Source: Thermodesulfobacteriota bacterium (GTDB lineage Bacteria > Desulfobacterota_D > UBA1144 > Nemesobacterales > JAJCZQ01). From it: a stretch of DNA of 64,000 nucleotides. Shown in pieces: positions 4,472-64,000 of this stretch. The translations under genes and the position numbers were made by a program. Position 1 is the stretch's first letter. Each line of letters starts with the position of its first letter. The notes under the pieces were generated by a model, which was given only the letters and a program-made list of their open reading frames with translations, was not told the origin of the DNA and did not search any database. The DNA lies in assembly GCA_965215275.1 (NCBI GenBank), contig OZ244044.1, positions 1,152,001 through 1,216,000 on the forward strand. The letters are read 5' to 3'.

Positions 4472-4501
4472 TTGACATTCATTAATAATACAAAGTAAAA
4501 T
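4472..4501 (+). promoter_or_regulatory. Sigma70-type promoter of S8-like gene 1
   Basis: TTGACA(4472)-N18-TAAAAT(4496); homologous to the promoter at 60091-60119. Confidence 0.7.
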
Positions 4502-4511
4502 AGAAAAAGTC

Positions 4512-7009
4512 ATGAACATCCTGTTTAGAGTAACACCCCCCCCCATAAGTTATTAATTCCCTTTTTCTTTCTTCTGTGCTTTGTAAACGTTGGTGCATAT
4601 GGTCAGACCAGCGTTGATAACTGCGACTCCAGTGCAACGACAGAAGCTACATTGACAGTAGCCGGAAGTACACGTAGTGGAAGTTTAGCTGCCGGTGCTG
4701 ATCCGCATTACTTTCAGATAGACGTGAATGAAAGATTGATCGTGGCTATAATAGTAACCTTCCCCTTCTCCAATGATCAGGGATACAGTTTACAGGTATG
4801 TGACAGCAATAATTATCTGATAGCAAGTGCTGCTGGAGTTCGTATTGAGGATGAGGGTATAGTGAAGGTCACTATAGAAACCCGCCTCAGACCTGGAACG
4901 TACTATATAGTAGTGGGAAGCCGTGTTGCCACGTCCTACAATGTTGCAGTTGTGGTATCTGATCTTAATACTGTATTTGATGATGACTGCCCGGAAAGTA
5001 GTACTACAAATTATCCAAACGACACCTTATACGGTTGTCAGTGGTATCTGAAACGTCAGGCGGGTGAGTTTATATTAGGTGAAAAGACAATACCCGATAC
5101 GGAATATGCAGACATAAACATAGAAGAGGTCTGGGATGATAACGTATTTGGAGCTGAGATTAACGTAGCGGTGGTAGATCATGGCATGGACACAGATCAT
5201 GAGGACCTTGCTGATAACGTGGATACTACACTTTCTCATGATTACTCAGGAAGCGGTGATCTGTACAGTCCTTTCAGTGGTCGCGGCACACGTGTGGCAG
5301 GCATTATAGCAGCAGTGGGTGATAACAGCCTTGGAGTAAGAGGTGTAGCACCTCAGGCAAGCATCTACAGTTATAATTTAGCTGATAACTTCAGTGATAC
5401 TAATGCAAAGGACGCCATGGTCCGTAATAAGGATATAACGGCTGTATCTGTCAACAACTGGGGACCGAAGGACCTGCCGGTTCTTACAGAGGCTTCATCA
5501 GAGTGGGAAGAAGGAGTGGAAACTGGTATAAGAGAAGGATTTGGTGGTAAAGGAGTATTTTACGTATGGGCGGCAGGGGACGGACATGAAGGATCAGACC
5601 AGGCTAATTTTAATGAGTATTCCAACTACTACGCTGTAACTACCGTATGTTCATCAGAGATCGATAGTCATGATAGCTTGATCACTAAGGGTTCGAGTAC
5701 TTTTTCAGAAGAAGGGTTCAATCTATGGGTATGTGCACCGGGTTCTTATATTGTAACTACGGACAATAACGACATTTATACTTTTGAGTTCCCTGGAACG
5801 TCAAATTCAGCTGCTGTTGTTTCAGGAGTAGCGGCACTGATACGGGAGGTAAACAGTGATCTTAGCTGGCGGGATCTGAAACTGATCCTGGCAGATTCAG
5901 CCAGCCAGGGAGACACCCAGTTAATTCCTGTTAGTGATAATTGGAAACCAGGAGCATTTAAATACAGTTCTGATTCAGAACGTTATCGTTACAGTCCGAA
6001 GTTCGGTTTTGGCACGGTAGACGCTGCTGCGGCAGTAGAACTTGCAGGAAGCTGGACCAACGTTCCACCGCCAATGAGACCCGTGACGGTTTCCTCGGGT
6101 AATATCAATACAGTTATCCCGGACTTCACAACGGGAAACTCAGAAGAAGATGTTTCCGTCGTTTTCACACTGACAGTACCTGATATAGATATACCAGACA
6201 CTGAGGGCTTTACGGAATTTATAGAGATCGGTATTAATTTCACTCACCCTTTCTTTCCTTTTTTAAGTATAGAAATAACTTCCCCTGACGGTAGAGTGTC
6301 AAAACTCACTGAGGCATATCCAGCAGAAGCTTTATCACTTTTATTATCTGGCAGATCTCTTACTGTAGACGACTTTGACTATACAGGCAGAGAGCATCGT
6401 TTTGGTTTAGCTAATCACTTGGGAACGGACCCTGCCGGAGAGTGGACCTTGAAGATAACCAACGCTTCAGTCGCAGGTGCGGGGACCTTACACTCATGGA
6501 ACATTAAGGTCTATGGTCATATGTCTGGTGAGACACCTACGTTCGGCGGCTGGACGATACCAGATAAGAATTACGTGCCGGGAACCGCAGTAAAGGAAAC
6601 ACTGCCTGAGGCAACAGCAGGGAATGGAGAACTGACCTACAGCCTTTCCCCTCTTTCTTTACCTGCTGGACTTACTTTCAGTGAAACTGACCGAGTGATT
6701 AGCGGAACACCAACTGCTGTATCTTCCGGCAGTTATACATATACGGTAACGGATGAAGATGGAGATAAGGATGAGCTGAGATTTACTATCAGGGTAACAA
6801 CTACGCCGCCAGAACCAACAGACCCACCAACAACAAGACCACCGACACGAAGACCGACATCATCAGGTACAGGCGGAGGTGGAGGAGGATGTGCGGTCTC
6901 CGATCAGAGCAAAACTGTTCCTGATCTGCTCGCAGCAGTAGCATCTCTGATGCTTATACCTGTATCCGTAGTTATCAGAAGGAAGATAAGGTCTCGGATA
7001 AAGACTTAG
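4512..7009 (+). CDS. Kexin/subtilase-like (S8) surface protein, probably inactive: signal peptide, PPC-like domain, S8 domain, P-domain, one Ig-like repeat, Pro/Thr linker, GGGGGC-TM-basic tail; frameshifted at a C9 tract
   Basis: VAVVD, RGTRVAG (His replaced), AAGDG, GTS, LSWRD, GFG and GEWTLKI motifs. The frame extends upstream of the track's TTG 4652 into a signal peptide (HKLLIPFFFLLCFVNVGAYG) that joins ATG 4512 only if the tract is C10 or C7. Confidence 0.85.
4536..4544 (+). repeat. C9 homopolymer, candidate contingency locus
   Basis: ACA-CCCCCCCCC-ATAAG, 24 nt after ATG 4512. Confidence 0.9.
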
Positions 7010-60090: not shown

Positions 60091-60119
60091 TTGACATCCG
60101 TTCATAATACGAGTAAAAT
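60091..60119 (+). promoter_or_regulatory. Sigma70-type promoter of S8-like gene 2
   Basis: TTGACA-N17-TAAAAT, homologous to 4472-4501. Confidence 0.7.
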
Positions 60120-60128
60120 ATCAATGTT

Positions 60129-63100
60129 ATGAAAATACCAAACATAAAAACATGTAGTTCCATTACCCCCCCCCGTGTATACCTGAACTTTCAACCTGGT
60201 ATAAGTATTTTGTAAGAACAATGTTTAAGATAATACCCCCCCCCATCTAAGTCATTACTAACGTTAGTCTTATTTCTTCTGATTATTATGGTCATAGCTG
60301 CAAAAGGGCAGAGCAGCCTGGAAGAAACATTATCTGAATGCAGAGGAATCAGTGCAGACACGGAAGATCCGTTATACGGATGTCAGTGGCATCTGAAAAA
60401 TACAGGACAGCTTGGTTTTTCCGGAAAGGAAATAACTGCAGGAGAAGATATAAACATAGAGGGAGTGTGGAACGAAGAGGTATATGGTACAGGAATTAAC
60501 GTAGCAGTAGTAAGCGACGGCATTGACCTTTCACATGAGGACCTTTCTGCAAACGTTCGTTCCGGACCGAACTATGATCATTCAGACAGTTCATCTTTTA
60601 GTGGAACACGAGCGGCAGGAGTTATAGCAGCAACTGGATATAACGGACTGGGAGTAAGAGGAACTGCACCTGGTGCGAGTATATACAGTTACAGGTTATC
60701 CGGTGATCTCAGTGAAGCGGACGCGGTGGTCCGTAATAAGGAAATAACAGCAGTATCGGTTAACGGCCGGGGATCTGAGGACGGAGCTTTTTTTCAGGAG
60801 GCTTCATCTTCCTGGGAAGAAGGAGTGGAACTTGGTATAAAGAAAGGGTTTTATGGTAAAGGAGTGTTTTACGTCCGGGGAGCAGGGGACGGGCATGAAA
60901 GAGGAGATCAGGCTAATTTTAATGAATATTCCAGCTATTACGGAGTAACAGCCGTTTGTTCAACTGACGGTTTTGGAAAAAAGAGTATTTTTTCAGAAGA
61001 GGGAGTAACTCTATGGGTATGTGCACCTGGTTCTGATATTGTAACCACTGATAACAACAACGATTACGTTGTAACTTCCGGAACATTTCTATCAGCTTCA
61101 CAGGTTGGAGGAGTGGCAGCACTGCTGAGAGAGATAAACGACCAGCTGAGCTGGAGGGATATAAAGCTTATACTTGCGGGTTCAGCACGGCAGAACGACG
61201 TTTCTGACCTTAGCTGGGAGACTGGAGCGGTTAAATACGGCTCTGACACGGAAAGATATAAATATAATCCTAAGTATGGTTTTGGTGTGGTTGACGCAGA
61301 AGCAGCCGCAGAACTTGCCAGAAGCTGGAAAGGCGTTGGAGAAATGAGGACCGTTACCGCCTTTTCAGATAAAGAAATAACAATTCCTGATGGAGAAGGA
61401 AATGGAGAAGGAGAGGCAGACGGGGTCCTTGTCTCAAGACTTATTATCCCTGACCTGGAAGAAACAACGTTTACGGAGTTCACAGAAGTTGAACTTGTTC
61501 TCTCGTGTGACTGCTTACAGGACCTTAATATACAGATAACCTCTCCTTCCGGAACAGTATCTGAACTTGTGCGGGAGTTTGTAAGTGGACCTTCGGATGA
61601 AGAAAAAAACTGCGTCAGTTACCTGAGAAGAACACATCGTTTCGGGTCGGCTAAACACCTCGGAGAAGACCCTTCCGGAGAATGGGTCCTTAAAATATCC
61701 GATACTGCTTCCGGAGATACAGAAAATGAAAAAAACACTGTTACCTTACACTCATGGAGCATTAAGGTATACGGGAATTTTTATCAGGAACATGGCAGTG
61801 AGATAAGTGCTAAACATCATGATCTTAGTTTTGGTGGTGCGACAGTTCCGGATCAAATCTACAGAGTAGGAACACAAGTAAACTACAGGTTGCCTAGTGC
61901 AAGTGGAGGGGGTGGTGGACGTACATATAGTTTATCTCCTCGTTTACCTGCTGGATTGGACCGTCAAAACATATTAGTAATAAGAGGAACACCAACTACT
62001 GTAACACCTAATACACTTTATACATTAACTGCTACAGGTTTCAACGGAGATAAGGATAGTCTAACGTTCAATATCACAGTAAAAGAACCTGACACATCAC
62101 CAACCTTTTCAGGAGCAACGGTCCCTGAACAGATATGGACGGAAGGGGTAAGGATACCAACGTTACGTTTTCCTAATGCAACGGGAGGTAACGGAACTTT
62201 AACATACTTTTTAAGTCCTGCGCAGCCAGTTGGTATCAGCAGACAGGACAACAGGTTATTCGGAACACCTACGGAAACTCAAAGAAGATCTCGTTATACA
62301 TGGACAGTCAGAGACAAAGATGATGATGAAGATTCTATTCAGTTCTATATTACTGTAAGAGAGAACGTCCCTACCTTCGGAGGTCAGACAATACCTCAGC
62401 AGAATTATATAGTAGGCAGAACAATACAAAGATTAGTATTTCCTCGTGCAACGGGAGAGGAGCCGTTAACTTACAATTTAGAAGGAGGTCCGACTAATTT
62501 ACCAGGTGGATTGAACTTAGTAAGTAATCCAACAAGTATAATCGGAACACCAACTACAACGGCGGACATTAATTACAGATGGACAGTTACGGACAAAGAT
62601 GGAGATAAGACAGAACTTCCGTTCAGGATGAAGATAAGAACTGCATCTGAAGTACCGGACTTCGGCAGTGAGACGGTAGAAGATCAGGTGTGGGGTAACG
62701 GCAGAGCAGTAACGTTAACTCTGCCTCAGGCAACGGGAGGGGATGGAACTTTAAATTACAGTTTAAGCGGTGTAATACCAAATGGACTTATTTTTAACAG
62801 TAACACCAGAACGTTAAGTGGAACGCTCGACGTTGCTGCTCCAAGTGTATTACCCATAACTCTTTCATATACTTACAAGGTAACTGACTCTGACTCAGAT
62901 GATGACGGGGATTCTGACAGTATTACTTTCTCTATTACTATAGAAACTAACCAAGAACCGAGCTTTGGAGGTCAGTCAATTCCTGATCAGATATATATTC
63001 AAGGGACAACGGTAGGTCTTCCGGTAACGCTTCCTGCTGCCACTGGTGGTAATTCTCCACTTGTTTATAGTATCTCTCCTGCTTTACCTTCTGGATTGAG

Positions 63101-64000
63101 CTTTGAGCCTGCTACCAGAGAGATAAGCGGAGCACCAACTAATATTTCGGGTTTGATAACAAATTATACATATAAGGTAACGGACAGTGATGGAGATACG
63201 GCTAATCTGAGTTTCCGCCTGCAAATAATCGGTAACACCCAGCCAGTCTTTAATAATACGATAACAGATAAGGTGTATTATACGTTTACAGGAGTAACGG
63301 AAACGTTACCTGAGGCAGCACAAAATAATAATCCACCTTCAACTTACAGTTTAACTCCTGCATTACCTGATGGACTGAGATTTACCCCTGCTACCAGAGA
63401 GATAACAGGAACACCGACCACTGCAATGTCTGAGACTGATTATACGTATACGGTTGCTGATCTAAATGGAGATACGGATGATCTGACGTTCAGCATAACT
63501 GTATTAGCAGGAACTGACACGGAACCAACCTTTGGCAGTGAGAGTATAGATAATAAGGTGTACATTAACGGCATTACAGCAGTAACGTTAACTCTGCCTG
63601 CTGCTACTGGAGGGGATGGGACTTTAACTTACAGTTTAGAGAGGGACCCTGGAGATGGTATTTTCACTACTGCTTTATTTAAGGGATTGACATTTACTGC
63701 AAACACCAGAGAGTTAAGCGGAACACCCAATCTTGATATTCATCCAAGTCTATTTCCTGCAACTCAGGATCATAAATATGAAGTAACAGACAATGATGGA
63801 GATACAGCAGAGATAACGTTCAGTATAACAATAGAAGAAGACAGCGAACCGGACTTCAGCGGTGTGACAATACCAGATCGTGTGTACACGGGGAGAACAA
63901 TAGAGCTGCCAGAGGCAGCGGGAGGGAATTTACCGGTTACATACAGTATAACACCTGATCTGCCAGCTGGATTGAGATTTAACGAAGTAACGCGGGAAAT
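60129..64000 (+). CDS. Large kexin/subtilase-like pseudo-protease with P-domain and at least 8 Ig-like (He_PIG-like) repeats; runs off the window; 5' end interrupted by two C9 tracts
   Basis: Absent from the ORF track. By hand translation the frame is open from 60234 to the window end (>1240 codons): signal peptide SKSLLTLVLFLLIIMVIAAKG, DPLYGCQWHLKN, LSWRDIK, GFGVVDA, GEWVLKI, then PxFG..IPD...D.DGD repeats. True start 60129 or 60221; first in-frame ATG is 60288. Confidence 0.88.
60166..60174 (+). repeat. C9 homopolymer (tract 1 of gene 2)
   Basis: ATTA-CCCCCCCCC-GTG. Confidence 0.9.
60236..60244 (+). repeat. C9 homopolymer (tract 2 of gene 2)
   Basis: ATAATA-CCCCCCCCC-ATCTAAG. Confidence 0.9.
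61824..64000 (+). repeat. Tandem 90-108 aa Ig-like repeats
   Basis: Units start near 61824, 62100, 62370, 62655, 62958, 63243, 63525 and 63849 with LSFG/PTFS/PTFG/PDFG/PSFG/PVFN/PTFG/PDFS. Confidence 0.85.

Follow-up and report, generated by a model that had tools for sequence, protein, structure and literature searches.

What do two runs of C accomplish when they stand one behind the other at the start of a single gene? The question is raised by a leader at position 60,129 of a 64,000-nt stretch (hereafter the window; contig OZ244044.1, positions 1,152,001 to 1,216,000, forward strand), which lies within a single 1.99-Mb contig (G+C 42.5%) of the genome of an uncultured Candidatus (Ca.) Dadabacteria lineage. 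Here two runs of nine C's (C9), spaced 70 nt, stand between a promoter-like site and a very long open reading frame (ORF) for a predicted kexin-like surface protein. A first reading of the sequence alone had pointed out the two tracts in series, and on re-reading the sequence we confirmed all the frames that it described. It proposed a two-switch leader that is expressed from the first start codon when both tracts are in frame or, alternatively, a first tract that tunes and a second that switches. Below, positions at this locus are those of the window, and loci elsewhere are named by their genome position.

The leader and its inner cassette

The genome contains 57 matches to the P domain of the long ORF product, and 49 of these 57 paralogues carry a run located after the start codon: 28 have two leader runs and 21 have one, while 8 have none in frame. 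All 28 double leaders start with a near-consensus promoter-like site, 9 nt and a first start codon (ATG1). The spacer between run 1 and run 2 repeats this layout, i.e. hexamer, 17 nt, hexamer, 9 nt and a second start codon (ATG2), and in every one of the 28 leaders 9 nt separate the -10-like hexamer from ATG2. A profile was then made of the 44 nt before ATG2. It scored neither the ATG nor the run, and was ranked among 56,605 other ATGs, 137 of them with a run behind. The ten best matches were all promoter-ATG-poly-C cassettes, including the outer cassettes of family members and cassettes that stand alone in front of frames that we take to be methyltransferase-like. Without the three intact spacers the profile retrieved seven cassettes in its top ten, the decayed main group alone retrieved eight and this locus alone three. 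The retrieval of cassettes by the spacer shows a leader made of two promoter-ATG-poly-C cassettes in tandem, a stacked architecture that is well supported.

The inner promoter-like site (P2) matches the consensus at 9–10 of 12 positions in three paralogues (206486, 289951 and 319664) and at 6–8 of 12 in the other 25. At this locus it matches at only 7 of 12 and was missed by the promoter scan. All spacers preserve the distances of 17 nt and 9 nt at this site, as well as the final T of its -10-like hexamer. Four leaders, at 421717, 436326, 633539 and 652456, fuse the left flank of run 1 with the right flank of run 2, as would deletions between the runs. The paralogues thus show apparent stages: a single cassette, stacked cassettes with the inner promoter intact, stacked cassettes with the inner promoter decayed, and collapsed leaders. 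Double leaders were found in more than one group of a protein tree, which was quick and unfinished and served for broad groups only; this suggests that leaders move between paralogues by recombination. The earlier remark that all tracts are exactly 9 long, perhaps through consensus calling, does not generalize, as run 1 spans 9–13 and run 2 8–12 in the 28 double leaders.

A terminator scan of the locus gave no terminator-like site between leader and gene, and the spacer folds no better than shuffled sequence (3′ of run 1, z = +0.64 here; none of the 28 leaders below -1.8). With neither a terminator nor a stable structure, an attenuator hairpin in the spacer was ruled out. The spacers at genome positions 404458, 1486513 and 1505400 contain a stem of 10–12 bp that includes three C's of run 1 (-14.6 to -16.2 kcal/mol, z -0.3 to -1.8); it could be a DNA operator or a chance occurrence.

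Table 1. Features of the double leader and of the single-cassette paralogue, in window positions.
Feature	Position	Strand	Remarks
P1, promoter-like (TTGACA, 17 nt, TAAAAT)	60091..60119	+	consensus 11/12; 9 nt 5′ of ATG 60129
Leader ORF from ATG1 (ATG 60129)	60129..60215	+	28 codons at C9; TAA 60213-60215
Run 1, C9	60166..60174	+	fixes end point of leader ORF
P2, decayed second promoter-like site (CTGAAC, 17 nt, TATTTT)	60183..60211	+	in register of P1-type cassettes
ATG2, start codon of putative older cassette	60221..60223	+	9 codons to TAA 60248-60250 as assembled
Run 2, C9	60236..60244	+	fixes frame of surface-protein gene; out of frame as assembled
Signal peptide body, predicted	60246..60308	+	hydrophobic core, AKG before QSS; hydropathy window 3.8
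Long ORF	60246..64000	+	extends ~300 nt past window; kexin-like S8 domain, P domain, He_PIG Ig-like repeats, C-terminal tail
Single-cassette paralogue	4472..7009	+	promoter-like site, ATG 4512, C9 4536-4544; out of frame as assembled

How the two runs may act

Long C/G runs exceed chance in this genome. There are 78 runs of length 6, none of length 7 and 139 of length at least 8, and from the decay between 5- and 6-mers one would expect about 8, 0.8 and 0.08 at lengths 7, 8 and 9. As in homopolymer contingency loci, the runs of the leader are longer than composition predicts and lie in the 5′ coding region, where they set the frame. At C9 in run 1, the leader ORF stops 5 nt 5′ of ATG2 (ATG 60221). 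One more C joins the ATG1 and ATG2 frames into one; at C8 the leader ORF ends 34 nt 5′ of ATG2, and the early stop of the third leader frame, after three codons, is a TGA (60184-60186) inside P2. When run 2 loses one C, a long frame of 1350 codons opens.

We propose that run 2 is an on/off switch and that run 1, in a short upstream ORF, is a three-level dimmer. This logic remains a sequence-based proposal, to which we give a probability of about one half. A new cassette would have landed before an older one, whose promoter then decayed. From the strong P1, an mRNA is predicted that is almost leaderless, with its transcription start placed by the promoter-like hexamers. With C10 at run 1, ribosomes from ATG1 would read on into the ATG2 frame and output would be high. 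With C9, the putative resting state, they would terminate 5 nt short of ATG2 and re-initiate at it, for a medium output, and with C8 or C11 they would stop 34 nt upstream of ATG2, for a low one. In the off states, Rho possibly acts on the C-rich untranslated RNA. Slipped-strand mispairing would alter each run independently, and recombination between the two would leave a leader with a single switch. What the genes encode would then be a set of membrane-anchored kexin-like proteins devoid of catalytic activity, the majority of which any one cell would keep off.

Two further starts touch on this scheme. The sequence ATG TTA TGA (window 60124-60132) overlaps ATG 60129, is missing from many paralogues and probably lies 5′ of the transcription start. 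ATG 60288, from which the sequence-only reading had considered translation with export retained, is a poor start: this codon stands behind the hydrophobic core and leaves a best 11-residue hydropathy of 0.8 vs 3.8, and no more than 11 of the 28 paralogues show a Met in frame at this place.

As assembled, 8 of the 28 double leaders have run 1 in the read-through state, 14 have it in the state that stops beside ATG2, and 6 have it in the third frame. A stop beside ATG2 is present in 27/28 spacers, and run 1 at its modal length is in that state in 13/14 loci; the third-frame stop falls 34–40 nt before ATG2 in 25/28 spacers and 8 nt past it in the remaining three. The alternative in which tract 1 tunes and tract 2 switches is consistent with this, as the commonest state of run 1 ends beside an ATG2 that all 28 leaders keep. 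Run 2 is in frame in 5/28 and needs a +1 shift in 20/28, and in those five loci run 1 stops beside ATG2 in four, namely 1007865, 1102206, 1486513 and 1496590, reads through in one and is never in the early-stop state. Both runs are in frame in one leader, with 1.4 expected. Among single leaders, 6 of the 20 with an assigned ATG are in frame, two of the six hinging on the choice among several ATGs. Taken over all leaders, the last run is in frame at 4/33 loci of modal length vs 7/16 at other lengths (p = 0.025, with paralogues that are not independent), which indicates that off is the resting state.

The frames themselves appear to be kept. The ATG1 frame is open before run 1 in 23/23 distinct segments, 19 of which differ in length by multiples of three. 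In the spacer, the ATG2 frame is stop-free in 24/24 distinct sequences vs 23/24 and 21/24 for the other frames, and a substitution simulation put the chance of a fully open ATG2 frame at 0.012–0.030.

Several observations weigh against the switch-and-dimmer proposal. Paralogues that recombine were handled as a tree in the simulation, whose result may be overstated, and the spacer peptide shows no protein-level constraint (9 synonymous and 59 non-synonymous codon changes). By eye, three of four stand-alone cassettes of the presumed methyltransferase type have the same-frame stop without an upstream ORF, and the stop beside ATG2 may be inherited rather than selected. The cassette at 431141 keeps C9 with none of its frames reaching or adjoining the gene behind it, so a run can persist without a role in fusion or restart. 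The 4:1:0 split of run-1 states in the five loci with run 2 in frame is within the noise of independence (2.5:1.4:1.1 expected from the marginals). Restart has to be assumed, because ATG2 has no Shine-Dalgarno sequence (longest anti-Shine-Dalgarno match, 3 nt). Finally, only one of six runs bridged by contigs differed between samples.

The latter result comes from contigs of four sequencing runs in two studies, one of them possibly the source of the assembly; such contigs drop minor variants. In a 19.9-kb stretch with 8 runs, the listed contigs bridge 6, and five match the assembly. The sixth, run 1 at genome position 1505400, is C12 in the assembly and in X1 and is one base shorter in X2, X4 and X5, where the X2 and X4 contigs span 5.19 kb without any other difference. 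This shortening shifts run 1 into the read-through state. At the locus itself, one 72-nt X5 contig is one base short at run 1, but this is weak evidence, with only 10 letters past the run and a paralogue one mismatch away, and contigs placed here are confounded by paralogues in general. A 69-nt skip in X1 may be a collapsed paralogue and was not used as a variant. In addition, a protein from another assembly (P0055) begins in frame where the C8 allele at 1336585 is in frame.

A stricter form of the gate was the first option of the sequence-only reading. In this form ATG1 would be the sole start, on leaderless mRNA, with ATG2 as a relic, and protein would appear only with both runs in frame, so that about one of the 28 genes would be on at a time. 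It agrees with the decay of P2 in 25/28 leaders, the missing Shine-Dalgarno match at ATG2, the open read-through frame and the single leader that is fully in frame. Moreover, members 401564 and 1533632 have long N-regions before the hydrophobic core, and a 31-residue extension could therefore be tolerated. However, ATG2 is invariant in 28/28 leaders, against 31 variable positions among the 45 columns that precede it, and the resting state stops 5 nt before it. GGAG-type motifs precede only a minority of 311 clear starts in the genome, so starts without a Shine-Dalgarno sequence are ordinary here. A role for both runs is supported. Of the two options in the sequence-only reading, the strict gate from ATG 60129 has less in its favour and seems doubtful to us. 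Just as tentative is a broader view, in which a mobile promoter-start-poly-C cassette stacked on itself multiplies two switching probabilities, and a 28-member surface-antigen family has roughly a single gene on at any time, with neither an expression site nor an invertase nor a regulator; decay of the inner promoter would complete the gate, and recombination between the runs would remove it.

Alternatively, P2 may fire and give a short mRNA from ATG2 that bypasses run 1, leaving run 1 at most to tune P2 in the manner of the T-tract of Helicobacter pylori sabA, a precedent described in PMC4081817. Between the end of run 1 and the -35-like hexamer of P2 lie 8 nt. The conserved spacings and last T, together with the three better-preserved inner sites, would fit a working promoter. 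Yet P2 here is uncalled at 7/12 against 11/12 for P1, the inner -10-like hexamer no longer has its A at position 2 in five paralogues, and we regard two active promoters as unlikely.

Slightly less probable still is a scheme in which only run 2 matters, and run 1 came along as a passenger when the cassette inserted and was then maintained through mutational bias and gene conversion. The unconstrained spacer peptide and the persistent C9 at 431141 would be expected of a passenger. So would a run length that follows the 5′ neighbour base: after A, 63/91 C runs in the genome are exactly 9 long, and after T, 40/45 are at least 10, in family and non-family loci alike. This genome-wide dependence points to a mutational floor on run length. 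The relative genome G011 shows the same rule (A+C9 70, A+C10 18, T+C9 4, T+C10 12), which is absent in the relative genomes G005 and G010. An apparent sign of selection on the state of run 2, a left-flank contrast of 10:0 vs 3:7 (p = 0.003), is confounded by this rule and was not used. On the other side, the ATG1 and ATG2 frames are open with indels that are mostly in-frame. Moreover, a search by right flank that set no limit on length gave 21 runs, all of them at least 9 long except for two interrupted ones, and beyond interrupted runs it found no decayed run 1.

The DNA might also be fixed and the frames repaired in expression, by slippage of RNA polymerase on the C run or a +1 ribosomal shift at CCC-C, with low leaky expression of all paralogues. 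Run lengths have a sharp floor at 9 nt, which is the length of the RNA-DNA hybrid; 20/28 run-2 states need a +1 shift, and most sibling runs are identical between samples. This explanation is nevertheless very unlikely in view of the family lengths of 8–13, the DNA-level difference between samples, needed shifts in both directions and the lack of stable structure 3′ of run 1. It may add a basal leak to the switch and dimmer proposed above. The same variable lengths, opposite shifts and missing stimulatory structure uphold the argument of the sequence-only reading against one programmed ribosomal frameshift; of the DNA or transcript slippage that it favoured instead, DNA-level slippage is supported by the length difference in the sibling run. 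That homopolymer errors of the assembly mask genes that are truly in frame is hardly credible: long C/G runs are error-prone in sequencing (PMC4235727) and the platform of the sequencing runs is not on record, but contigs of other sequencing runs reproduce five sibling runs without gaps, there are no 7-mers and the mode is at 9–10, the runs stand at one position in 49 paralogues, and P0055 starts where the C8 allele is in frame.

The kexin-like family and known systems

The product of the long ORF is closest to kexin and furin among solved structures and carries both an S8 and a P domain. It has no Asp-His-Ser triad: the catalytic Asp, His and Ser of kexin align with Ser, Ser and Phe. The catalytic His and Ser occur together in none of the 49 run-bearing paralogues and in 8/8 of the others, with the full triad in 7 of those 8. 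The switchable set is therefore predicted to be non-catalytic, and we infer a role in binding or surface display for its members. A tail that is Gly-rich with Cys, then hydrophobic, then basic ends 52 of the 57 frames, and a C-terminal membrane anchor is predicted for the long ORF product. Its last 99 residues have no NCBIfam match at E 0.1, and the tail does not correspond to a named sorting signal such as GlyGly-CTERM and kin.

The eight paralogues without an in-frame leader run are located at 429057, 516950, 520020, 529809, 608002, 668114, 795128 and 1361555. Several of these have C or G runs within or near the coding region instead (518332, 518941, 605571 and 668426). The paralogue nearest in leader sequence, 1119762, has an in-frame TGA within the P domain and would be truncated even with both runs in frame.

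Contingency loci are mostly known from pathogens, usually with one coding repeat per gene. Here, in a genome that has mismatch-repair genes, a large share of 2 Mb goes to 49 switchable, predicted catalytically dead kexin-like proteins, and 28 of the 49 genes carry two switches from one repeated cassette. The individual parts have precedents, and the serial stacked-cassette arrangement is a variant of known contingency loci. In H. pylori, sabA has a CT repeat at the start of its coding region and a T-tract beside the -35 element (PMC4081817). This adhesin gene carries a pair of hypermutable repeats, of which one switches on/off and the other is graded, as proposed for the leader described here, and run 2 corresponds to its coding on/off repeat. 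The graded repeat of sabA, in contrast, acts on RNA polymerase binding, whereas here both repeats are poly-C runs that follow a start codon, stem from the stacking of a cassette and are shared by 28 paralogues. In pil1 of Streptococcus gallolyticus, a repeat in a leader ORF shifts its stop and sets downstream expression via an intrinsic terminator (PMC3894217). Run 1 likewise moves the stop codon of a leader ORF, but no intrinsic terminator was found here, fusion of the leader with the gene is possible, and there is a further repeat downstream.

The surface serine protease genes of Neisseria meningitidis NalP, which is subtilisin-like, and AusI contain poly-C in the coding region (PMC5472700), as does the protease-type gene here. 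They differ in having a single tract, an active protease and autotransporter export, as opposed to two tracts, replaced catalytic residues, a predicted C-terminal anchor and 49 copies. At the lic2A-type loci of Haemophilus influenzae, several start codons surround one repeat (PMC4235727, PMC5084427). Alternative starts make the repeat a multi-level control there as they may here, where two repeats each stand behind their own start. The poly-G phasome of Campylobacter jejuni comprises 12–27 loci in an organism without mismatch repair (PMC4235727); it shares with this genome the G/C homopolymer contingency loci spread genome-wide, and differs from its 139 runs and open mutS and mutL frames.

In the literature searched, with partial coverage of subscription journals, there was no report of serial coding homopolymer switches that derive from one stacked cassette and are repeated across a paralogue family. 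The literature searched gave nothing on phase variation in Dadabacteria. No orthologous leader was found in relatives, whether the search used DNA (40 genomes), proteins at E 1e-30 (100 genomes of the order), the cassette pattern (40 genomes) or the P domain (4 genomes of the family). The two-run pattern gave one match in 5 genomes, and this was a single long run. Several of the relative genomes are incomplete, the same-genus one being 80% complete. Metagenome contigs gave no match to the spacer pattern; they contained four distant loci at 41–44% identity, two of which were inspected and had no such leader.

Other long runs in the genome

Exact 9-mer runs number 68 in this genome, 0–20 in 39 of 40 relatives and 87 in the remaining one. 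The frames of mutS and mutL are open, and rho and efp are present. Genome-wide, the plus strand holds 109 C runs vs 30 G runs, and for runs that adjoin a long frame, by a rough rule, the coding strand reads C in 86 and G in 19.

ATG-poly-C leaders also stand alone, at 384576, 496975, 828763, 899130, 1401687 and 1814694, and several share the promoter-like cassette. The frames behind them, many of them truncated, we take to be DNA-methyltransferase-like from a DPPF-type motif seen by eye; one run among these leaders is C26. A second paralogue family, with what we assume by eye to be TPR-like repeats, has its C run about 77–98 codons into the frame (19539, 20737, 31545, 1068992, 1899949, 1901573, 1914729 and 1964984). 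In the same-genus genome G001 (L164, L166, L170 and L173), several runs inspected by eye read as G9, flanked on the other strand by TTGAC-like and TA..AT-like hexamers, as would be seen in promoter-spacing switches. Three loci of the present genome, 94069, 1295437 and 1301357, look similar.
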